From the NCBI GenBank assembly GCA_030390025.1, contig CM059431.1, forward strand, positions 146,632,001-146,696,000: a DNA stretch of 64,000 bases, in the 5' to 3' direction. The stretch's first letter is position 1; the number at the start of each line of letters is the position of its first letter. Below the pieces are notes generated by a model, which was given only the letters and a program-made list of their open reading frames with translations, searched no databases and was not told where the DNA came from. Positions 2,087 to 18,300 of this stretch are shown in pieces. This stretch comes from Squalus acanthias (taxonomy: Eukaryota). A program made the position numbers and the translations under genes.

Positions 2087-5000
2087 CTAGAGCCCGCACA
2101 GCCCGTCTACCTGTGTCCGCTCAGCTATGATGCGTGGAAACGACTCCTGGTGGAGATGGAGGTAGAGAAGCAGAAGGGTAGTTATTTGTTGGACACGGGA
2201 GCTTCATGCACCGTGATTCATACGGATAGCCCCTTTGACTCACCACTGTCTACCAAGGTCCCATACACATTAGCGGGGTTCACGGGAAAAGAGCAGGCTG
2301 GCGCGTTCTCCATTCCGCCCTCCATTCATTTAGGAGCACTCCACACCACGTGGAAGTGCATACTGATGAAATGGCAAGAGGGAGGTGGGAGAGGCATCCT
2401 CGGATCAGATCTCCTATCGGAGCACGTGATCCTCGTGGACCTTAGGAATCACTGTCTCTGGGGAGCCAAGGGTGGAAAAGGCAAGGTAGTGGTAATTCCA
2501 GGGGAGGAAGGTAAAGGGGCCCTGTGTACCATGAAGCCATCCGGAGGCTACGACCTCGGGCTTATGGTCGCGGATGTCCCAACGGACATGCAGACGTACG
2601 TGTCAGATAATATGCACGCGTTTGCAACCCACAAGCACGATTGTGGGAGGTTTACCGGGTTTGAGGTCAGCGTAGACGGGGACCCCATGACCCGGCCCCA
2701 AAAGCAGTATAACTTCCCCAAAGAAGCAGAACCCGATATGGAGACAGCACTGTCCTCCTTGGTGCAGCAGGGCGTGTTGAGACCGATAGCCACACACGTG
2801 AACTCCCCATTATGGCCGGTGAGGAAGCCGGATAATTCGTGGAGGGCCACGGTGGACTACAGAGTCCTCAATAGTAACATTCCCGCCTGCGCGCCCACGG
2901 TAGCAGCAGTTGCTAACCTAATAGGGAGTATCCCAGCATCCGCGACCAGGTTCACGGTGCTGGATATCTCGAACGGTTTTTGGTCCATCCCGCTGCGGCG
3001 AGAGGACCAGTACAATTTGCCTTTACTTTCAAAGGACAACAGTACACGTGGAACTGTTTGCCACAGGGTTTCCACAACAGCCCCAGTATTTTCCACCAGT
3101 GTATGGCAGGAAGTACAAAGGAGTTTAGTCAGCCCAATCAGATAGTGCAGTACGTGGATGATTTGCTCCTATTTACGGACTCAAGGGAGGAGCATGGAAC
3201 ACTGCTGGCCGAGTTATTGGAGCTGCTAGCGAGAAAGGGTTTTAAAGTTAACCCTAAGAAAGCACGTAGCGGTCTGCAGGAAGTAAAATTCCTGGGGCTG
3301 ACCATTCGCGCTGGGGAAAGAGCCATAGATAAGGCTAGGAGGGAGTCGGTGCAAGAGTTACCGATTCCCAACACCATAAGGGGTGTGAGGTCCTTTTTGG
3401 GACTGACCGGTTACTGCAGAGACTTCATCGAAGACTATGCGGCCACAGCAGCGCCGCTGCTCCGACTCCTCCATAAGGGAGTGGAGTGGTCTTGGGACGA
3501 GGGCTGCCAGGCAGCCTTCGAGAAGTTAAAAAGGAATTTGTGGACCGCGCCAGCTTTAGGGGCATAGACAGGGGGAAGGAGTTTTTCCTGGAGTTAGCTG
3601 CCAGCGGAGACAGCTTGAGCGCTGTGCTGCTCCAAGAGCGTCACGGCAAGCTGAGGCCGGTTGTCTGTTCGTCCAGGGTGTTAACGGATGTGGAGAGGAG
3701 TTTCTCCAGTTGCGAAAGGTATCTTTTAGCCATGCATTGGGCTGACAAAAGATCAGCGATCTTCACAGGGCTCTCTCCCATCACTCTCCTCACCCATCAC
3801 TCACCGACTATGATGCTTCTCGATGGGAGGATCAAGGATGGGACCGTAAGCAGCGCTCGAATTGCACGCTGGACCCTTCTCCTCTCCCAGATGGATCTTA
3901 GAGTTAAAGGTCTTTGCGAGCCCAGGCTTGCGGCCAACTTGGTATACCCCAGTGCAGCCCACCAGTGTTCGGTGGAAGGGGTGTGGGAAGTCAACATAGG
4001 TTTGCGGGCCGGGATACATCCCACAGGGCGCGAAATTTATGTTGATGGGTCCAGCACAGTGTCCGCTGGCGAACGACTCACAGAGTGTGGAGTTTATGAC
4101 CCTGCGGCAAACCTTGCCCTGGCGATTAAGCTCCCCAGCACCATGAGCGCGCAGCAGGCTGAGTTGTCTGCGGTGGCGTATGTCATTACCCACCCAGAAA
4201 TTTTCCCAACCCCATACATGATTTGCTCGGACAGTATATTCACATGCAATTCGTGTACGGAATACCTGGCCATTTGGTCCCGTCGTGGATACACCTCCGC
4301 GGACGGGCGACCTTTAACGGTGAAGCCCTTGCTGGAAAAGATCCTAGAAGCAGTAGGGGAGGAAGGGGAGATTTTCATCCATAAGGTGAAGGCTCACTCC
4401 TCCACAGAGCCCCGTGGGGAGGGCAACCAGCAGGCGGATGCGCTAGCCAGGGAGGGTGCCCGTAATGGCATTTTCTGGGACCCCTATGGGCCCGGACCCA
4501 TGGCATCGATCCAAGGTAGGGACGGGAATCCCGGGAACACCAGGGTAGCATTGCACCTAGACCTTAAGACCGTCCAGAACCAGGATCCCGCCCTAAAAGC
4601 AGTTCGCAGAACCATTGCTGAGGGCAAGCAGGTAGAGGGTACGTACAGTACGGCAACCCTCTCCGTCAAAGAAGGCATGCTGTTCCGCGAGGAGAAGTGG
4701 GTTGTGCCGCATTAGCACAGGAGGGAATTCCTCCAGTTGGCTCATGAGGGGCCGGGGGCAGGGCACCCCGGGCCCGAGGTTACCTGGCAACGGGTAGAGC
4801 AGGCAGGATGGTGGCCGGGACTCAGGGAGCAGGTCCGCGAGTTCTTTGCAAGCTGTCTTGTGTGCGCTGCAAACAACCCAGACCCCCAGAAAAGGAAAGT
4901 GCCCATGGGGCACATCAGGAGGGTGGAGGGACCATGGCAGTCGATCCAGATCGACTATATAGGGCCCCTGCCCACCACCCAGGGAGGCTATAAATACTGC

Positions 5001-6581
5001 CTCGTCTTGGTGGACGTGTTTTCCAAATGGGTGGAAGCCTTCCCCTGTAGAACAGCTACGGCGCTGGGTATTGCAAAAATCTTGGTCCGGGAAGTGTTCT
5101 CGCGGTGGGGACTCCCCCGTTTCGTGGACTCAGACCAAGGGAGTCATTTCACCAGCCAGGTGATGCAGAACACCCTCATGCTTTTGGGCATTGAAGGGAA
5201 GTGGCACGTAGCGCACAATCCACAGTCATCCGGGATTGTTGAACGCATGAACCGGACCCTGAAGGAGAAATTGAGGAAAGAGACTATGAACTCGCCCCAA
5301 AAATGGGCGGAGGATCTGCCTCTAGTCCTCATGGGGATCCGGGCCAGTCAGTCGAAAAGTACGGGGTATTACCCGCACGAGGTGATGACTGGGAGGATCA
5401 TGCGAACCCCCACCCATGTGCTAGCGCCGGTGCTCACTGAGGGTCAGCTCCAAGAGGTAAGCAAGGACAAGTTCGTCCAGACCCACTTGGAGCGCCTGAA
5501 GCAGGGTTATGAGCAGGCGGCTGGGAACATGGGAAGGCAGCATCAGGGCAATCGCCTGTTGCTGGAACCCCGCAAGAAACAGGAGTGGGAAATAGGAGAC
5601 CAAGTCATGGTCAGAAACTATGCCAGAGTAGGGAGTCTGGAACCACTGTACATGGGACCCTACAGTATTGTAGATAAGGCGAGTCCCATGGTATACACCA
5701 TAAAGGTACCTCGGCGCACTAAGTGGTTCCACGTAAATCAGTGCAAACTGTATAAGCCGGGTGCACAAGGGCCAACCACAGGGGCCAAACCTGCGAGTGG
5801 GGACACGCAGCCCCGGGTAGGACCGCAGGGCACGCAGGCTGGCAAAGCAGCTTGCATCAGGGGAGAGGACATCCTAGCAAAATGTAGGATCCTTTATTGG
5901 GGTTGGGAGTCAGATGAGGAAGAGTTCGAAGAGGTCGACCAAGATAGTGACCCGAGCGAAGAGGAGCTGGGATCGGAGGACGAAAGGTTCGCCCGCGATT
6001 CAGGTAAAGGGAAGATAGGGACTGCGAGTGGAGGTCCACACAGGGTGGAAGCAGAAGCTGCAGGTCCCGAAATCAGGGGGGCGGAGCTAGGGGAGGCGGA
6101 GCCAGCGGCTGTGGTGGGACGACAGGACGTGGCGATGGAAGTCTCAGAGCCCAGCCCGTCCGCATTGGAAGTCTTGCCCTCAGGGGCGGTAGGGACTGCG
6201 AGTGAAGGGCCGCCTACTGGGCCAAGTAGGGCGGTGCCAGAGACTGCTGATCCCGAGTTCAGGGAGGCGGAGCCAGGGGAGGCGGAGCCAGCGGCTGTGG
6301 TGGGACCACAGGTCGCGACGGTGGAAGTCTCGAAACCCGGCCCATCGGTACTGGAGTTCTTGCCCCCGGTAGGCCCCCGTAGGTCAAGTCGGACACCCCA
6401 GCCCAGGAAGATATGGTCAAGTCCCCAGAGTGTCCTAAGGCGTAGGTTCAAGGCTAGGCAGCCCAGAGAGAGCCCAGTCACAGCCCAGCAGCAACAGGCT
6501 GCGGCAGATCAAAGGGGGGGGGGGGGGGTCAGCGCCCTCCCACCGTCGGGAAAAGCTTGTGGCCACCTTCACAGAATTTGA
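2087..6581 (+). pseudogene. pol: pol: protease, RT, degenerate RNase H (tether), RNase H, integrase with long C-terminal extension; frameshifts near 3014 and 3560, stop at 4713-4715
   Basis: LLDTGA and GILGSD (PR); NSPLWPV, LDISNGFWSI, LPQGF, YVDD at 3151 (RT); ELAASGDSLSAVLLQ (tether); YVDGS, SAQQAEL, SDS, KVKAH, GNQQADALA (RNase H); H-H-CLVC, QIDYIGP, DSDQG, GIVERMN, MGPY (IN). Confidence 0.95.
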
Positions 6582-6820
6582 ATAGGCCGCCCTGGGAACG
6601 GGCGGCGCTGTACAGTTTTATAAGATAAGTTAGAAGTTTTATAGTTTGTAATTCTTGTAAGTTTTATAGCTTCATTTTGATAAGTAAAAGATAAATGATG
6701 GGAGTTTAGATTAGGTTTAGTTAAAAGATCTATCCAGTGCACATGTCTTCTTACGTGAGGCGAGGTCAGGGGACCCGCTCACCCTTCACAAAAGCCAGAG
6801 ACTCTTGGGAGGCTGGCTAC

Positions 6821-6840
6821 ATCATTTTATCTGATCACAG
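6821..6840 (+). promoter_or_regulatory. Putative env splice acceptor
   Basis: atcattttatctgatcacAG ends 13 nt before the ATG at 6854 that opens a signal-peptide-like sequence. Confidence 0.5.
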
Positions 6841-6853
6841 GAATCAAGGAAGG

Positions 6854-9197
6854 ATGGAACGGATTCTGGTAGTGCTCGCGGCAAGCGGATGTGGACTGGC
6901 CTATCGAGGCCACACCAAGGATGTAGTGGTGTTTGGATGCTCCGGGGACACGGCCCCCATCACGGTGGATGGGACCGGGAGGCGAGAGGCTGAGGAGACC
7001 GCCACTTATTTCCACAAGGGAAGGTGGCCAGGATGGCTGGGAACGAATTCAACTGAATACTCCAGCACAACGGGTTTTGCCTACAAAGAGACTTCTTTGA
7101 TGTGCCCCAAAGTGAGGATCATCGCACCCAGAGTCAGCGTCACCGTCGGCAAACGGATTTGTTTAACTTGTAATGGGAATGTCCCATTGACCCGATGGTG
7201 GTGGCTACGAAAGCTGAGCAGAAATATGAGGAATTCTTCTGTCGAGTGGGAGCGACTGGGTAATAATACCCATCGGACAATTACGGGGACTAACAGGCAA
7301 TTGAAAGTCTGTTGGGACAAATGGTGGGAACCGGATGAGGGAATTTATGTGGGGGTCAAAGCACGTTTGCCCCAAAGGCATCTCCATATTTTTCGTGAAT
7401 CAGTGGCAGGATTATGGGAAAGGGATGAGGTGGGATGCTAGCAACAGGGGGTGCGGAGCCCCATACTCTCCGATCCCGGTAAACGCCACTGAACTCATTA
7501 CGCGCCCACGCAAGGCCCCGCCCACGATTCCGGTGGTTTTGGCTCAGGAAGAAGGGTGCCCTAAAACCAGTAAGGGACCCGGGAATGGTTTGGTACTGGT
7601 CCCTACAGACCAGATACTATTTCAGGGGGTACATTACGCAGTGGCCTCGGTGATTTTAAATCTCACCGAGGTGCGGTTGCCAGAGTGGTGCCCCAAAGAG
7701 ACGGAACAGTTGTACCAGGTCCTGTTGACCAATATGTTTAGACAATTTTATGAATTCGATTTTGCGGAGATTGATAAAACAAGTTTGTACACCACACCAC
7801 ATGAAGTTTTGGGCCAGGTGGGGAGACAAAGAAGGGGTGTTGTGAACGACATGTTCACTGCGTTCAATACAGGGACATCTGTGGTCAACACTCTAGATAA
7901 CGTGGAGGTGCAGACCCAGATTAATGGTTTAAAAACTCAATTAAAGAATATCCTTACAGACGAAAATAAGGTGGTAGGGTCTGGGTTACATGAAGACCAG
8001 GCCATGACGCTCCATTTAAAGGAAATTATAGCCGAACTGGAGAAACATGCGCGTACGGTAAATGCCCTGATCAGGGAAGATCGGAATGCATCCGATCAGG
8101 CTGCGCAGAACGAGGTGTGCATGCTCTACGGTGCGTGGTTATTGGGCGAGGGCCGCAGTAATTTGGAGGATTTAAAACAAGGTTTGGTCCGGTCCTGGAT
8201 AAGTAACAAACACCTGCAGGCGCTCCACCCTTTTCAGAACGCATTAAGCCCGTGCCAGCTCAGGCTAGCTTCAGAAGCATATCCAGTCCCCATGGGCTGC
8301 GGACGGTCAAACCATACCATTATGGGTATAGTGTTACGTATGCCGGTTTTGGGCGACACAGCAAAGCCCGCCCCGGTGTATCGGGTAGAGAACATTGGAG
8401 TCATTCAGGGGGGAGCCCACATTCGCTATGCAGCGGTCCCACCTTCCGTCATCCACTGGGAGCAAACGATGACAGGTACAGATCTCTCTGGTTGTCGTGG
8501 CAGGGGAGCACACATAATCCTGTGTCCCCAGCACTTGAATGCCTTTTTATCACCACAGTGCGGGTTCAGAACGGCTGGCGCCAAGCCCATGAATTGCACC
8601 ATGGAGGCAATGGCACAAGATCATGTGCCTCCGCAGGTGGCATACATAGGGGGTGGAACATATTGTGTTACCACTGCAGCGCAACACTACCAGCATGGAA
8701 ACCGTAACCGGTGTCCGGTGAGTGACAGCAGTTTCTGTTTTAAACCCAGGGCTGAAGTTCAAGTGGCACAGCAGCGAATTGTCCCGATCCCTGAACCATC
8801 CACTGTTCATCTAACAGTAAAAGAGAATTTTACCGACTTGCAGCGATTCGTCGCACATTTCGGATACATCATTCCCCCTCTCCCTGAGCACCTCACCAAA
8901 GTTTTGAAAGCCATTGCGGTTTCGCAGAAACATTTTTATACCCTTGAGCAAAAGACTGTCGAGATAGGGTCAGAGATCCTAGACATAGTAATCCCAACGT
9001 GGTGGGATCTGTTCACCAACATCGAAGTGCCTTCCTGGATTAGAATAGCCTCCCACATTTTAGTTGTATGCCAGGTCATAATTGTAGTATACCTGTTGGT
9101 AGTGCACTGTAAGAGAGGCAAGCGCCTCACAGAACAGGAAAACACAGGAGAGTGGCGAGAGCGTTACGTGCACGTGCATGGAGAAAGCGCCGCGTAA
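6854..9197 (+). pseudogene. env: env (~780 aa reconstructed; one frameshift at ~7346-7352): signal peptide, Ig-like domain, furin site, F-type fusion subunit, TM helix
   Basis: MERILVVLAASGCGLA; RQRR at 7824-7835 followed by GVVNDMFTAFNTGTSVV; heptad repeat; Cys-rich ectodomain; TM IASHILVVCQVIIVVYLLVV; several N-x-S/T sequons. Confidence 0.85.
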
Positions 9198-9638
9198 ACG
9201 GCCAGAGTGACGACACTCCAGTTTTTCCATGTTGTGTCTCGTAGTTGTTTATTGATTGTTATTTTTCTTAGAACATGTAGCTAAGTTTGGAATTCTGTTT
9301 TTTAAAAAGAGTTGTTCTTGGATTATTTTTAATTTTGTGTTGTTAAAATGGTTGTGTGATTGTTTTGTTTTTCTTTTCCTGAATAATAAAAAAAAAAAAA
9401 TGCACATACAGGTGGTGCAAGAGGCAGCGGCCTGTTACACCTGGAAGACATACACGCAATTTAAGTAAAAGGCAAATACTGCCAACGGTTTGATAAAATT
9501 TAATTTTTCCCTGGGAAATAAGGACGACACGGAGACCCTACATAGTTTTAAGTCAAGGGAATATTTGGATATGGAGAATCGAGATAATGTTGCTCACCAC
9601 CACTTTTAATTGATATGATAAGCGGAGTTATTCGCATC

Positions 9639-9650
9639 AACAGGAGGGAC
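9639..9650 (+). promoter_or_regulatory. Polypurine tract
   Basis: aacaggagggac immediately before TGTA at 9651. Confidence 0.7.
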
Positions 9651-10229
9651 TGTAGAATTCGCAAATTATCGCGATTTCGAAATAACGAGATAGAGACATA
9701 CAGTTTCGTATAAACAGCTTTATTTCAGCAAAATGCTGTCAGGTTTCAAAACGGACACAAGCAGCCTGTAAAATGGCCGCCTCGCCTCGTGGCAGAAGGT
9801 TCCAGACTTTCAGTAGGCAGACAAGATGGCGGTTCAATAAACATTTCAGCAAGATCGGACAGTACTCAGCATATTGATATAAGACAAGGCGCAATTTTTT
9901 TGCATTTTAACACCTAAGAAATATAAGTGCTGGAATCGGTTTTCCATGCACAAACGAGGGCTATTGTACTGGGCAATCAAGGGCCCATCCAAAGACATTG
10001 ATACGCAAAGTCCCCGTGGCTCTACGATGAGAGAGCCGTTCGCGGGTACTCACAGCAAGAATTTGGAGGCCCCAAAACCCCTCCAGGGAGACTCCTAGCC
10101 GGTTCCACAATGGAAGAAATATTAACGGGTACTTAGACAGTTACAAGTATCACCGAAACCCATTAACGACAAGAACCACCCCATACAAGCAGTTTGAGCG
10201 CCAAAACATGACAAAAGATGAACGTTAAG

Positions 10230-10263
10230 ATTGGGCGGGAGATAAGGAATTACAGTACTATAA
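10230..10263 (+). promoter_or_regulatory. Putative LTR promoter: ATTGG (CCAAT), GGGCGG (GC box), TATAA
   Basis: gATTGGGCGGga at ~10230, TATAA at 10259-10263, pyrimidine-rich initiator-like tract ~25 nt downstream. Confidence 0.55.
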
Positions 10264-11080
10264 CTGTAGTGTCCAAACGTCCATCTTCCTCTTATCCCGG
10301 CCGACTCTTGACTCTCTTATTCTCTGCCGACCACCGACTCGAGCTCTTGACTCTTATTCTCTGATCCGCTGATCCTTCTGGGGTCGACCTCGTGGCTTGC
10401 CACAAAGATCTGTGGAGAGCTGGTCTGCGAAGGCCTGTAAGCGGGCGCACCATCCCGAGAGGTCGGTAAACAGTGTTGGATCCGAAGGCCCGAGAGGAGA
10501 TGAGATGAGATGAGATGAGAAGAGAAGAAGAAGACTACACGTGGCGCTGCGGTCAGTAAGCCCCGACTGCGCCCGAAAATCGATTAATCACTTCTTTTGA
10601 ATTTTATCGGCTACTCCACAACTGGCACCAGAAGACTCTTCTTCGAGTTTTACCGAACGGGTGTCGGCACAGGAAGACTCTTCTTTGAATTTTATCAGGA
10701 ATCCGAGGTCAACACAGATCTTCATGGCAGCAGGCGGTCCAGCCTGCTAGCCGGAGCAGAGCGAGTAAACAAGTGGGGTACAGAGACCCCTGATCAAAAC
10801 GTGAATAGTCAGGTGTTGTGGCGAAAACATCCGAGCATCCTTTTAGAATTCTCTGAGTTATCACGAGTGGTGAGCATGATTATCGATCCTACAGATCTAG
10901 ATTAGGACAGGTATTAATAGGGGAGGGTTTTTGTTTTAAGGATAATTATAATGTGTGTCCCCTTTTACGATGTGTCGTGCGCTCCTCGTTTCCCTAAACC
11001 TAGTTTCATAAATGTATGTAAGCTTGTACTGTCATTAATCTGTGCTTTTGACATGTATTTCGTAATCTTGAACAACATGC

Positions 11081-11086
11081 AATAAA
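11081..11086 (+). terminator. LTR polyadenylation signal AATAAA
   Basis: Present at the same place in both LTRs. Confidence 0.65.
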
Positions 11087-11302
11087 GATTTTCCATTTCG
11101 TACTATTCAACCGGGTCTACCTGAGTTTTCTCTGCATTATTGCTCTCGCACCTAAGTCCAGTGTCAGAACCGTAAGGGCGAGTGGGTCGAACCACTGACA
11201 GTTGTCTAGTGTTACCAGGCTGACTGGAGACCAGAACAGGCAACGAGGCCTAACCCCGCACTAGCACCCAGGCTTAGCACAGAGCCACCCGAACCCCTTA
11301 CA

Positions 11303-11378
11303 AACTTTAACTCTGTTTCTCTCTCTACAGATGTTACTTGACCTGCTGAGTATTTCCTGAACTTTCTGTTTATATTTA
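11303..11378 (+). mobile_element. Penelope-like terminal fragment, interrupted by the provirus
   Basis: ttaactctgtttctctctctacagatg...gacctgctgagtatttcc matches the reverse complement of 37460-37530. Confidence 0.7.
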
Positions 11379-11384
11379 AGATTC

Positions 11385-12998
11385 AGAACTGATGAAGTAG
11401 CTCAACACACCCATGAGGCTCTGTGGACAAACAGCCACAGCAAAATTCTACTCCACAATAATCTGCAAACTTATGGCCCGCATGTCCCTTACTCTACCAT
11501 TAACATCAAACCAGAGGACCGAACGTGGTTCAGTGAGGACAGTAGAAGAGATTGCCAGGAGCAGCATCAGGCGCACCTAAAAATGAGGCGTCAACTGGTA
11601 AGGCTGCAAAATGCATGTTGAACTGCAGAAGCAGCATGCTATGGACAGAGCTAAGTGATTCCACAACCAGCGGATCAGGTCAAAGATTTGCAGTGCTGTC
11701 GCATCCAGTCGTGAATGTTGATGGGTTTACAACCGTCTTCAACCAGAAGTACCGAGAGTATGATCCATCTCGGCCTCCTCCTGAGGTCCCAAAACATCTT
11801 CAGTCAATTTGAACAAATCCACGTGGTATCAGGAAACGGCGGAGCGCACGAGATGCAGCAAAGGCTCTTAGCCCCCAGCAACATCCCGGCTGTAGTGCTG
11901 AAGAATTGCGCTCCAGAACTAGTCGTGACACCAACCTAACTATTGCAGTACAGCAACAACACTGGAGCTATCCGAAAAAGTGGAAAATTACCCAGGATTT
12001 TCTTGTTCAGACACAGGACAAATCCAATGCGGCTAATTACTGCCCCATCAGACTAATTTCAATCATCAGCAAAGTGATAGAAGAAGTTATGTGCTGTCAA
12101 CTCAGCTTGGGTTTCGCCAGGACTGCTCAGGTGCAGACCTCATTACAGCCTTGGTCCAACCATGGCAAAGGTCTGAATTCCAGGGGTGAGGTGGAAGTGA
12201 CTGCCCTTGACAGCAAGGAAGCATTCGACCGACTGTGACCCTAACTGTGCAAAAACTGAAGTCAATGGGAATCAGGCGCAATACTCTGCAGTCATACTTA
12301 GCACAAAGTGATTGTTGGGAGACCAATAACCTCCGCCCCAGCAGATCGCTACATTACTTCCTCAGGCCAGTGTCCTTTTCTGAACCAACTTCAGACGCTT
12401 TATCCATGACTTTCGCTCTGTCATATGGTCAGAATGGGCATGTTTTCGCTGATGTATTTCAGTGTTCCATTCGTGTGATGAAATATTCTTCACTTTCCTG
12501 GATGATTGCAGCTCAAGCCACACTCAGCAATCTCGAAACAACCGAACACAAACAGTCCGCTTGATCAGCATCCCATCCACCATCTTAAAAATTGACTCCC
12601 ACCACCACCGGCGCACCGTAGCTGCAGTGTGTACCATTTACAAAATGCACTACAGCAACTCGTCAAGACTTATTCTACAGCGTCTCACAAACTCGTGACT
12701 TCTTGCATCTAGAAGGACAAGGGCAGCAGGCGCAGGGGAGCACGATCATGTCCAAGTTCCAATGCAAGTCACACAACATTCCTGACTTGGAAATATATCG
12801 CCGTTTCGACATCGTCGCTGTTTCAAAATCCTGGAGCTCCCTGTCCAACTGTACTTTGGGAGTAACTTCACCACACGGACTACAGCGGTTCAAGAAGGCG
12901 ACTCACCACCACATACTCAAGGAAAACTAGGGATGGACAACAAAGGCTGTCCTTGCCAGCGCTGCCCTCATCCCGAGAATGCATAAATAAAATAAAAG
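11385..12998 (+). mobile_element. Decayed CR1/L2-group LINE fragment (RT remnants, 3' end, A-rich tail)
   Basis: DKSNAANYCPIRLISIISKVIE and ALDSKEAFDRL remnants; the 3' end is homologous to the reverse complement of 40608-41100. Confidence 0.85.
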
Positions 12999-13567
12999 AT
13001 AACTTTTTCATTGTCCCTTTGTGTTGCTGATCTCTAGTTAATGGATACTTTATTTTCTTGAATATCAGATGGCAACTGAGCTGGGAGACATCAGCAACTC
13101 CATTCACAGCGCAGCCTAGTACCCAGAACCTGTCACTACATCGTCGCTTTGGATAAAGTAAACTTGAATGCGATATCATAACATTTTAACCACCTCTATT
13201 AGATCAAAAAATAAATGTTAATATATATTGTTTTCTTTTAAAGCCGTCCCCATTGTTGTAACTTTCAGAGACTGTGGCTGTACCGTTCTTGCGTTGGAGA
13301 CGTTGCACATAGACCACCGGAGTTGAAAATGAAATGAGCAAATAATAGGATTTTTGCAGGAAACGCATATTTTCAGTTACCAGGAAATTTTTAATCTACG
13401 TATTGTGGAGCCCCGAAATCCAGCAGTTTTTCAAGTGGTGATAAGAATCCTATAGACCCGTAGAGCACTTCTGGGCCACGAGCCACACAATGCCTGACGT
13501 TCCAGGCAGCATCTGCATCAGCTCTTTGACAATAAGTTCTACTCTGAGATGGACACCACCATCGTGG

Positions 13568-14346
13568 CTCTCTCCTGTCTCTCTCTGTCTCTCTTTCTAT
13601 GTCCCTCTCTCCTTCTGTCGGTCTCTCGCACTCTCTGTCTGTCTGTCTCACTCCTGTCTACCTATAAATTTCACCCCTGTCAACTTCTGACTCTCTGTCG
13701 CTCTCTCTCTCTCTCTGACTCTCTCTGCCCCTCCCTCCTTCTGTCGGTCTTTCCCTCTCTCTGTCTTTCTCTGACTGTCTGTCTCTCTCTCTCTCTATCG
13801 CTAACTCTTCTCACGGTTTCCTTGTCCCTCAATCAGCACTTTTCATTTCTTCTCTTCATAGGCAGTCCCTCTGAACCGATTATTTATTACTTTTCATTTA
13901 GCTTTCCATTGTTGTCGCTTTTCTCCGTTTCCTGTTGTTTCTATCCTACTCACTTTCTGTAATTTTTCTATTCCAGTTCTTCCTCTGTTTCTGGGCTTCT
14001 GTCCCTTAACACCAAATCAGTTTTCGCACCTTCTGAATCTTACTCGTTTCAGCAGTAGTATCCTTCCCTCATTCCATTTCTCTATCCTTTCTATCCTTTT
14101 TTCAGTTCTCATTCTTTCTACCTTTCGCTCTGTTTGTGGTTCTCTCTTTCTCACTCGGTTTCTCTGTATCTTTCAGTCTCTCTCTCCTCTCTTTATCGCT
14201 CTGTCTTCGTCTATCTATGTGGCCTTCCCAGTCTAACTGCATCATTCTCTCTTTCCCTCATTCTCTTCCATATCTCCTTCTTAATCTCTATATGTGTGTC
14301 CCTCTGTCCGTGTCTGTCTATCTGTTTGTCTGTTTCTCTCTCTCTG
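13568..14346. repeat. Degenerate (CT)n/(CTGT)n low-complexity tract
   Basis: Directly visible pyrimidine-rich microsatellite. Confidence 0.9.
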
Positions 14347-14424
14347 TACAATATACACGAAAACAATATAATTAATACTGAAGAAAATACTCCTGTGGGT
14401 CCAGGCCCACAGCGTAATCTTCGC

Positions 14425-14503
14425 AATAGGGTAGCTGAATGTTTAAGACGTTAGACTGAAGACCCAATAAAGGTTTTCGTGAAATCGAACCCCACTCCAG
14501 ATA
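14425..14503 (+). pseudogene. tRNA-Leu(TAA)-derived pseudogene
   Basis: aatagggtagctgaatgtttaagacgttagactgaagacccaat...tcgaaccccactccagata is colinear with vertebrate tRNA-Leu(TAA), with many substitutions. Confidence 0.7.
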
Positions 14504-15334
14504 GTTCTGATCATCTATCAGTCTAATGTTTGAATGCGTCTTGAGTGTTTAACAAGTCCGCATTTAATTAGTCAGGTAATTTAAAACAAGTGAATCTTTC
14601 ATGCTTTTACCTGTCTGTGCGTTCAGATTCAATCCCATAGTTCATTATTTACATATATTGTTGATGACCAGAAGGCTTTCCCAGTAAATCAGCAAACCAA
14701 AAAAATGACTGAAACGGGACCCGAGTCATTTCGCGGCTGAATTTCCTGTGCAGATCGATGGAAAATCAGCCCGAGGCCGTCCCTGGGAATTGCGGTGGAA
14801 GATCCAAAAGCTCAGATAAAGAGGTTGTACTTAACTCAATGGACATGGAATCGAAATTTCTCACTTTTAATGGGAAGCGTACTGGATTGGGAAACATGAA
14901 CGAATTGGGAAACATTGATGAATCGGCTACAGCAAAAGAACTGAGGACCGTTTATAGATCGGCAAACAACAATCATTTAAAATCGTCAATGATTTGGTGG
15001 ATTATCAATAGATTGGAATCAATCGATGAATCACGCAATATCAATCATTTGGAAACTACGATTGAGGAAATGTTTGAGTAAATTAATTTATTTTCGTAAT
15101 TACTAACATCTGGAACACGTCTTCTCAATTTGTCTGTCTCCCTGCAATAGAAATGAGAACTTAAAGTGTAATTAATACTGATCGCTACTCTCGAGAAAAC
15201 GGTCCGGCAAATTGTTAAATGTTCAAAGTTTGCAAGGGCAGTTTGACATTCCAGCTGAGATGGCGCGGGACAAGGAGAGAGGAGTCTTAATAAGCCTGGC
15301 AATTTTTTTTTGAATAAGATGGAAATCTAAAACC

Positions 15335-15398
15335 TGGTACAGATAGTGATCGAACACAGGCTCCTGGATTCAGGGGACCGACGCCTTTCCACTTCGAC
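15335..15398 (-). pseudogene. Degenerate tRNA (Thr-like) abutting the satellite start
   Basis: Minus strand gtcgaagtggaaaggcgtcggtc...gttcgatc resembles tRNA-Thr(CGT) GGCCAAGTGGTAAGGCGTCGGTC plus a B-box. Confidence 0.5.
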
Positions 15399-18300
15399 TG
15401 GGAAAGTTAATGGACAGATACCATCAATGGATTGGGAAAGTGAGTGGAAAAATACCGTGAATGTATTGGGAAAGTGAATGGACAGATACCATCAATGGAT
15501 TGGGGAAATCAATGCACAGATAACATCACTGGTTTGGGAAAGTGAATGGAGAGATACGATCAATAGCTTGGGAAAGTGAATGGACAGATACCATCACTGG
15601 ATTGGGGAAATCGATGCACAGATACAATCAATGGATTGGGAAAGTGAATGGACACATTCCATCAATGGATTGGAAAAGTGAATGGACAGATACCATCAAT
15701 AGATTGGGAAAGTGAATTGACAGATACCATCAATGGATTGGGAAAGTGAATGGACAGCTACCATCAATGGACTGGGAAAGTGAATGGACAGATATCATCA
15801 ATGGATTGGGAAAGTGAATGGACAGATACCATCAATAGACTGGGAAAGTGAATGGACAGATACCATCAATGGATTGGGAAAGTGAATGGACAGTTACCAT
15901 CAATGGATTGGGAAAGTGAATGAACAGATACCATCAATAGATAGGGAAAGTGAATGGAGAGATACCATCATTGGATTGGGAAAGTGAATGGACGGATACC
16001 AACAATAGATCGGGAAAGTGAATGGACAGATACCATCAAAGGATTGGGAAAGTGAATGGACAGATACCATCAATGGATTGGGAAAGTGAATGGACGGATA
16101 CCTTCAATAGATTGGGAAAGTGAATGTACAGGTACCATCAATGGATTGGGAAAGTGAATGGACAGATACCATTATTGGATTGGGAAAGTGAGTGGACAGA
16201 TACCATCAGTAGATTGGGAAAGTGAATGGACAGCTACCATCAATGAACTGGGAAAGTGAATGGACAGATACCATCAATGGATTGGGAAAGTGAATGGACA
16301 GATACCATCAATAGACTGGGAAAGTGAATGGACAGCTACCATCAATGGACTGGGAAAGTGAATGGACAGATATCATCAATGGATTGGGAAAGTGAATGGA
16401 CAGATACCATCAATAGACTGGGAAAGTGAATGGACAGATACCATCAATGGATTGGGAAAGTGAATGGACAGTTACCATCAATGGATTGGGAAAGTGAATG
16501 AACAGATACCATCAATAGATAGGGAAAGTGAATGGAGAGATACCATCATTGGATTGGGAAAGTGAATGGACGGATACCAACAATAGATCGGGAAAGTGAA
16601 TGGACAGATACCATCAAAGGATTGGGAAAGTGAATGGACAGATACCATCAATGGATTAGGAAAGTGAATGGACGGATACCTTCAATAGATTGGGAAAGTG
16701 AATGTACAGGTACCATCAATGGATTGGGAAAGTGAATGGACAGATACCATTATTGGATTGGGAAAGTGAGTGGACAGATACCATCAGTAGATTGGGAAAG
16801 TGAATGGACAGCTACCATCAATGAACTGGGAAAGTGAATGGACAGATACCATCAATGGATTGGGAAAGTGAATGGACAGATACCATCAATAGACTGGGAA
16901 AGTGAATGGACAGATACCATCAATGGATTGGGAAAGTGAATGGACAGTTATAATCAATGGATTGGGAAAGTGAATGGACAGATATCATTAATGGATTAGG
17001 GAAATCAATGCACACATACCATCAATGGATTGGGAAAGTGAATGGACAGATACCATCAATGGATTGATAAAGTGAAAGGACAGATAACATCAATGGATTG
17101 GGAAAGTAAATGGACAGATAGCATCAATGGATTGATAAAGTGAATGGACAGATACCATCATTGGATTGGGAAAGTAAATGCACAAATACCATCAATGGAT
17201 TGATAAAGTGAATGGACAGATACCAACATTGGATTGGGAAAGTTAATGGACAGATACCATCAATGGATTGGGAAAGTTAATGGACACATACCATCAATGG
17301 ACTGGGAAAGTTAATCGACAGATACCATCAATGGATTGGGAAAGTGAATGTACAGATACCATGAATGGATTGGGAAAGTTAATCGACAGATACCATGAAT
17401 GGATTGGGAAAGTGAATGGACAGATACCATCAATGGATTGGGAAAGTTAATGGACACATACCATCAATGAACTGGGAAACTGAATGGACAGATTCCATCA
17501 ATGGATTGGGAAAGTGAACGGACAGATACCATCAATGGTTTGGGAAAGTGAATGGAGAGATACCATCAGTGGATTGGGAAAGTGAATGGACAGCTACCAT
17601 CAATGGACTGGGCAAGTGAATGGACAGATACCATCAATGGATTGATAAAGTGAATGGACAGATACCATCATTGGAATGGGAAAGTGAATGGACGAATACC
17701 ATCAATAGATTGGGAAAGTGAATGGACACATACCATCAATGGATTGGGAAAGTGAATGGACAGATACCATCAATGGATTGGGAAAGTGAATGGCCGGATA
17801 CAATCAATAGATTGGGAAAGTGAATGGACAGATACCATCAATGGATTGGGACAAGTGAATGGACAGATACCATCAATGGATTGGGAAAGTGAATGGACAG
17901 AAACCATCATTCGATGGGGAAAGTGAATGGACAGATACCATCAATGGATTGGGAAAGTGAATGGACGGATACCATCAATAGATTGAGAAAGTGAATGGAC
18001 AGATACCAACAATTGACTGAGAAATTGAATGGACAGATACCATCAATGGATTGGGAAAGTCAATGGACCGATACCATTAATGGATTGATAAAGTGAATGG
18101 ACAGAAACCATCATTGGATTGGGAAAGTGAATGGACGGATACCATCAATAGATTGGGAAAGTGAATGGACAGATACCATCAATGGATTGAGAAAGTGAAT
18201 GGACTTATACAATCAATGGATTGGGAAAGTGAACGGACAGATACCATCAATGGATTGGGAGAGTGAATGGACAGATACCATCAATGGACTGGGAAAGTGA

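Follow-up and report, generated by a model that had tools for sequence, protein, structure and literature searches.

A frameshifted env gene of a probable snakehead-retrovirus-like endogenous retrovirus in Squalus acanthias with a predicted class Ib, paramyxovirus F-like fusogen and a likely N-terminal Ig-like module

In this study, a stretch of 64,000 bp of the Squalus acanthias genome (assembly GCA_030390025.1, contig CM059431.1, positions 146,632,001 to 146,696,000), hereafter called the window, was analyzed. It contains a reverse-transcribing, LTR-bounded endogenous retrovirus (ERV), whose LTRs begin with TG, end with CA, share 97.2% identity (K2P 0.028) and are accompanied by a 4-bp target duplication. 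The following features were assigned:

1–258, + strand: 3′ end of the 5′ LTR (the full LTR has 1,652 bp, of which about 1.4 kb precede the window)
263–2086, + strand: gag with one CCHC knuckle, start codon not fixed (zf-CCHC, E 0.0005–0.002)
264–281, + strand: primer-binding site for tRNA-Arg (identical at 16 of 18 bases to the 3′ end of a host tRNA-Arg(TCG) gene plus CCA)
2087–6581, + strand: pro-pol with protease, reverse transcriptase (RT), tether, RNase H, integrase and a long acidic tail (Pfam)
6816–6840, + strand: likely env splice acceptor with pyrimidine run and CAG (read from the sequence, 13 bases 5′ of the ATG)
6854–6904, + strand: env start and likely signal peptide (hydrophobic residues 4–14; Met position kept in copies)
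7106–7357, + strand: likely Ig-like domain within the N-terminal module of env, in the upstream frame (Ig signals below the cut-off, low-confidence model)
7305–7441, + strand: overlap of the two env frames (frameshift near 7340–7350)
7557–7823, + strand: F2-like section of the fusogen core, with one helix, two long strands and two conserved Cys
7824–7835, + strand: furin-type cleavage site RQRR (motif)
7836–8177, + strand: putative fusion peptide and heptad repeat A (model helices 180–222 and 230–291)
8274–8780, + strand: Cys-rich beta domains resembling F domains I/II (pLDDT 81–96 in most blocks; align to F and foamy Env)
8886–8984, + strand: heptad repeat B (model helix 528–560)
9045–9113, + strand: transmembrane (TM) helix (KD19 2.6)
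9114–9197, + strand: short cytoplasmic tail with YVHV at 9165–9176 (sequence)
9639–9650, + strand: polypurine tract (sequence)
9651–11302, + strand: 3′ LTR (LTR comparison)

The copy in the window is dead, with gag, pol and env all broken. Gag has premature stops at 1484–1486 and 1796–1798 and ends with TGA-CTA in frame with pro-pol, which is disrupted by two frameshifts and one stop and gave Pfam matches to RVT_1 (2e-23), RT_RNaseH (1.5e-16), RNase_H (3.5e-19) and rve (5e-16). Pol runs on for about 270 codons beyond the integrase (5760–6581); this part is acidic, rich in Pro/Ala and contains an internal repeat, and the length of the family's frames, about 1,495 codons, suggests that it belongs to the protein. 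The LTR (9651–11302) is long (1.65 kb), has internal repeats and includes a 105-codon stop-to-stop frame at 10588–10905 with no meaningful Pfam match. Broken frames 3′ of the LTR, at 11800–12930, resemble by eye a remnant of a non-LTR retroelement.

In a preliminary description made from the window alone, env had been placed from 7335 onwards. This start is wrong, as the ATG lies at 6854 in the other frame, 13 bases after a splice-acceptor-like site (6839–6840), and an N-terminal module of about 240 aa had been overlooked. Env of the window copy is spread across two frames (6725–7441 and 7305–9197), and the frameshift maps near 7340–7350. In 15 of 20 genomic copies a motif of the upstream part and the furin site are found in a single frame, and one further copy is full-frame with a variant motif, giving 16/20. 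Six of the 20 copies have an env frame of 826 codons from stop to stop, equivalent to 783 aa from the Met, which is kept at the same position in the env copies. Both env parts are also joined in skate homologs.

The description of the part downstream of 7335 fared better. The furin site RQRR is read at 7824–7835, and cleavage would release a subunit of 453 aa, as described, with the first residues GVVNDMFTAFNTGTSVV and with 12 Cys; the Cys-rich region noted before is present. The TM helix was recovered as a hydrophobicity peak (KD19 2.6) at post-cleavage residues 404–422, and the tail motif YVHV at 9165–9176 fits Yxx-phi as a four-letter match; a motif like it occurs also in the skate homolog P0004. 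The heptad repeat and the second helix correspond to long helices predicted by AlphaFold2 at 180–291 and 528–560. The putative fusion peptide has only weak hydrophobicity (KD19 0.4–0.6). Neither CX6CC nor an immunosuppressive domain was detected in the env frame by motif scan, as previously stated; CXXC was likewise absent from the env frame of the window copy, which hence has none of these three hallmarks of gamma-type Env, and CX6CC was absent in 11 of 11 Env proteins scanned. Of the 16 Cys in the env frame, ten are conserved in 82% or more of those distant homologs that cover the position in question, and RxK/RR is found at the equivalent position in shark and frog homologs. The strict RxK/RR site is absent in P0070, P0053, P0055 and P0067.

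For the analysis of the fold, relatives of Env were searched in 1.84 billion proteins, and 42 were found. The 19 that were looked up (17–32% identity) come from sharks (13), frogs (2), an eel, a coelacanth and two unnamed sources; the five closest Env proteins belong to sawshark or skate and are 59–77% identical. A profile of 31 sequences was built from 29 relatives, the query and P0003, with 13 chimeric, short or weak rows excluded. While Env as a single sequence gave nothing significant in Pfam or in the PDB sequence search, and none of the 31 homologs matched a fusogen Pfam family, the best PDB sequence match of the 31-homolog profile was foamy Env gp130 (E 0.0055). A profile search with another alignment (A2) was uninformative because it was dominated by zinc fingers that came from a fused model of a host gene.

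The structure was modelled as an AlphaFold2 monomer (mean pLDDT 67.9, pTM 0.50), in which the two long helices enclose a beta-rich region. Because of the conserved Cys and these modelled helices flanking the beta-rich region, the features of Env go beyond what is expected by chance. The structural comparison proposed in the preliminary description was run on the monomer model, using VIA-align against 48,161 PDB chains, and its best match was an F protein rather than a retroviral TM or a non-fusogen. The top 16 matches were 14 paramyxo/pneumovirus F proteins and two foamy Env (Z 6.2–12.2, 127–344 residues aligned, rmsd 4.4–37.9), among them post-fusion NDV F (Z 12.2, 344 aligned, rmsd 18.2), hMPV F (Z 10.5, 280 aligned, rmsd 6.0) and foamy Env (Z 8.5 with 285 aligned and rmsd 6.9, and Z 8.3); Z values of 8–12 are little above the chance level that helical models can reach, and the rmsd values are large. 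The next match was an unrelated helix (Z 5.2), and no orthoretroviral TM was among the 50 best matches listed. Residues 92–499 align to F and foamy Env with Z 8.3–12.2, which in the monomer model predicts a nested DI-DII-DIII core, and the class Ib order of basic cleavage site, weakly hydrophobic fusion peptide, HRA, HRB and TM is present. In the ESM Atlas, Gypsy env, Baculo_F and Fusion_gly clusters were retrieved at 0.93–0.94 with 202–215 shared features. The detail that can be read from the structure match is restricted by the monomer state and the large rmsd values; with structure match, profile search and ESM Atlas in agreement, the predicted fold of Env is almost certainly F-like. The model thereby supports the proposal of an F-type class I fusogen carried by a reverse-transcribing element, all top 16 structural matches being F or foamy Env. 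Like the F proteins of NDV, PIV5, hMPV and RSV, Env has an F1-sized C-terminal subunit and a small F2-like part; it differs from them by an identity of 7–14%, by the weakly hydrophobic fusion peptide and by having its own N-terminal module, where these viruses use a separate attachment protein.

The Pol region was used to place the element among retroviruses (statements on published work here and below refer to the accessible parts of the sources cited). The RT motif is LPQG, as in published rows of SnRV, foamy and gamma viruses, whereas 24 of 24 lokiretrovirus (Loki) rows have PFG. By hand count over about 133 columns in three rows, RT identity was 52% to SnRV, 38% to Loki-Lca and 37% to SFV. 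The RNase H motifs are of the SnRV/epsilon type and unlike Loki; among the published rows, RT and RNase H are thus nearest to SnRV. The integrase resembles gypsy/Loki as much as any row shown, an SnRV row not being among them. In an RT tree with 21 database rows, the element falls with retrovirus-like rows and apart from four gypsy-like rows (100/100), and also apart from a 12-row group read as gamma/epsilon-like (98/97); since SnRV, foamy viruses and Loki are not represented by labelled rows in this tree, the SnRV-like placement rests on the motifs and the hand count. The dual RNase H of pol (PF17917, the tether, and PF00075) is common to all retroviruses. One CCHC knuckle and an in-frame gag-pol with a readthrough-type junction are shared with SnRV, for which one zinc finger (PMC2717909) and readthrough of UAG (PMC13517186) are described, and also with gamma/epsilon viruses; the codon here is UGA (UGA-CUA), in contrast to the UAG of SnRV. 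SnRV-like ERVs are known from the elephant shark as CmiERV lineage I (PMC4422223). An IMG/VR scan with a Pol relative gave no locus, and a 9-residue motif of the Xenopus Pol match P0011 does not occur in the examined portion of the Loki supplement. Judged from these sequences, pol probably belongs to the snakehead-retrovirus-like (class III) group.

The top ESM Atlas clusters, Gypsy env and Baculo_F, point to baculovirus F and to the F-type Env of errantiviruses, which are Metaviridae of invertebrates (bioRxiv 2023.10.26.564294). Errantiviruses have a gypsy-type RT and a single RNase H, whereas a second RNase H and an RT separate from the gypsy-like rows were found here.

Several other explanations were weighed. 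The F match might be an artefact of the long helices in a protein that is actually a divergent orthoretroviral Env or a non-fusogen, to which the missing significant Pfam or single-sequence match and the moderate model quality could be attributed. Given that the alignments cover 280–340 residues including the beta domains, that only F-type proteins scored above Z 5.2 and that two other methods concur, this explanation is already largely refuted and scarcely credible. Assignment to the lokiretroviruses, which would widen that group to cartilaginous fish, was our first idea and was dropped on the published RT rows (PFG versus LPQG). Lokiretroviruses are described in PMC7947760 as LTR elements with dual RNase H, a gypsy-like integrase and an F-like Env comprising signal peptide, basic cleavage site of the RXKR type, coiled coil and TM; these hallmarks recur in our element, and the Env of Loki-Xtr appears homologous by eye. 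Since 0 of 6 chondrichthyan genomes were positive in the Loki screen of that study, the assignment would also extend the known range. Yet the RT is without the Loki PFG and nearer to SnRV by hand count, the RNase H motifs are not of the Loki type, and Loki-Xtr Env has no counterpart of the module of about 240 aa before the core, which together make a lokiretrovirus improbable.

An endogenous foamy-like (spuma) virus of cartilaginous fish is another candidate, as the best profile match and two structural matches were foamy Env, the best PDB integrase matches of the relative P0008 were PFV integrase, and a foamy ERV of cartilaginous fish has been published (cited in PMC11468914). With foamy Env of class Ib (PMC11468914; PDB 8rm0, 8rm1), our Env shares the predicted DI-DII-DIII core, furin cleavage and location on a retroviral element. 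Foamy Env, however, carries its receptor-binding domain (RBD) as an insertion ahead of the furin site (PMC11468914), while here the core is uninterrupted, its start and the cleavage site being about 90 aa apart, and the module is N-terminal to it. A short signal peptide replaces the N-terminal TM leader of foamy viruses, Gag has a CCHC knuckle, which foamy Gag lacks according to PMC2717909, gag and pol are in frame, and RT identity to SFV was 37% by hand count; moreover, the PDB contains no SnRV-like protein that could have competed with the foamy matches. We regard a foamy-like virus as very improbable. More weight is due to a combination of an SnRV-like pol with an env that a late recombination event brought in from a lokiretrovirus or a negative-strand RNA virus. 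Swapping of env is frequent in anamniote ERVs (bioRxiv 2021.11.23.469661), and gamma-type Env occurs in some SnRV-related ERVs (bioRxiv 2021.11.23.469661; PMC8278194). The Env family is, on the other hand, deep and broad: its members from sharks, frogs, an eel and a coelacanth show 17–32% identity, and the 19 Env relatives looked up include neither a named Loki nor a named mononegavirus F. Late capture, which would be compatible with the fusion mechanism proposed below, is possible though rather unlikely. The explanation we consider probable is that of a frameshifted env of an SnRV-like (class III) ERV, with a predicted class Ib F-like fusogen and a likely N-terminal Ig-like receptor module.

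For the approximately 240 aa preceding the F core, Env residues 85–170 matched Pfam Ig_3 with E 0.047, and the homolog P0068 did so with E 0.0027, both under the cut-off. Ig clusters of the ESM Atlas were found at 0.90–0.91 with fewer than 170 shared features, the top match being unnamed, and 22 of 23 sub-threshold PDB matches belong to the Ig superfamily. The model of the module has seven strands (mean pLDDT 40, about 55 in strands). Taken as sequence and model evidence, these signals favour the presence of an Ig-like domain. From its position, the module would bind the receptor. The type of module varies among related Envs and is Ig-like, different or missing: an Ig-like module is seen in P0033, P0037 and P0055 (bamboo shark, frog and one unnamed), another Cys-rich N-terminal domain in P0032 and P0041 (two sharks), and no module in P0070 and P0053 (eel and one unnamed). 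Three sawshark gene models (P0005, P0007, P0051) join env pieces to host genes (Niban, cadherin, zinc finger) and are probably annotation artefacts.

For an intact copy, the following mechanism can be proposed. A spliced mRNA would be translated into a type I membrane protein of 783 aa with a signal peptide, which would trimerise and then be cut at RQRR by furin, by analogy with class Ib fusogens (PMC11468914). The F2-like piece would remain intertwined with the 453-aa F1-like subunit. After attachment to the cell via the N-terminal module, heptad repeat A would extend, insert the fusion peptide and then zip with heptad repeat B into a six-helix bundle. YVHV may aid trafficking.

The preliminary description had contrasted the F-like architecture with a retroviral one. 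The F-like part stands, but the contrast is not new: foamy viruses (PMC11468914) and lokiretroviruses (PMC7947760) have an F-like Env as well, and earlier publications on F-like Envs of reverse-transcribing elements cover these two groups and the errantiviruses (bioRxiv 2023.10.26.564294; PMC12583693). A description of an F-like Env on an SnRV-like ERV was not found in the literature covered, outside of which lie most subscription papers and bioRxiv supplements; a passage on paramyxoviruses in one retrieved paper deals with a tunicate. What sets this element apart is the pairing of an F-like Env with probably SnRV-like RT/RNase H and the position of a putative receptor module N-terminal to an uninterrupted F core. 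Tentatively, a class Ib Env may be native to the SnRV-like retroviruses in sharks, frogs, eel and coelacanth; taken together with foamy viruses and lokiretroviruses, this would make the F-like fold ancestral for retroviral Env, with a later replacement in most orthoretroviruses, and the lineage would swap N-terminal modules (Ig-like and possibly host-captured, other Cys-rich, or none) on a fixed F core. Independent gains of Env in lokiretroviruses and canonical retroviruses were favoured in PMC9040795, partly since the Envs seemed unrelated. Foamy Env has since been found to be F-like; if SnRV-like viruses prove to be a third lineage sharing this fold, one ancestral F-type Env would be favoured, a single ancestry that could be tested by paired RT and Env trees. 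Screens with gamma/beta TM baits would overlook these Envs, an abundant family in sharks that is annotated merely as 'uncharacterized protein'.

Copies of env were also compared within the genome. All 40 scored env matches, from 4,550 candidates, were 94–100% identical. Sequence comparison indicates a large, young, multi-copy family with a recent big expansion. Open frames of 1,400 codons or more contain at least 49, by hand tally, of the best 150 RT matches listed, and many matches score identically. For six full-frame copies out of 20 (94–98% identical; pairs not independent), pN/pS was 0.12 over env, and in the same copies 0.16 for the N-terminal module, 0.08 for F2 and 0.12 for F1. Variable env columns are distributed over the codon positions as 55/28/169, and as 36/17/118 without CpG sites. 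These values indicate purifying selection on env, including the N-terminal module, during the spread of the family. With env under such constraint, spread of the family by infection is likely; reading it as reinfection draws on general knowledge of ERVs (PMC10435555). Related sequence was seen in three presumed-RNA runs of two studies, which is no evidence of expression.

Another copy is located on the opposite strand at about 146,708,000–146,721,500, which is 12–25 kb beyond the end of the window. This copy and the window copy (window positions 6700–16000) share their 3′ flank at 97–99%, by which the opposite-strand copy is recognized as an inverted segmental duplication and not a separate insertion. 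From position 15263 on, the window contains a very long array of a 34-bp unit, which, as suggested by composition, occupies most of the remaining window. The GC skew of the satellite between the two copies flips near 40–43 kb of the window.
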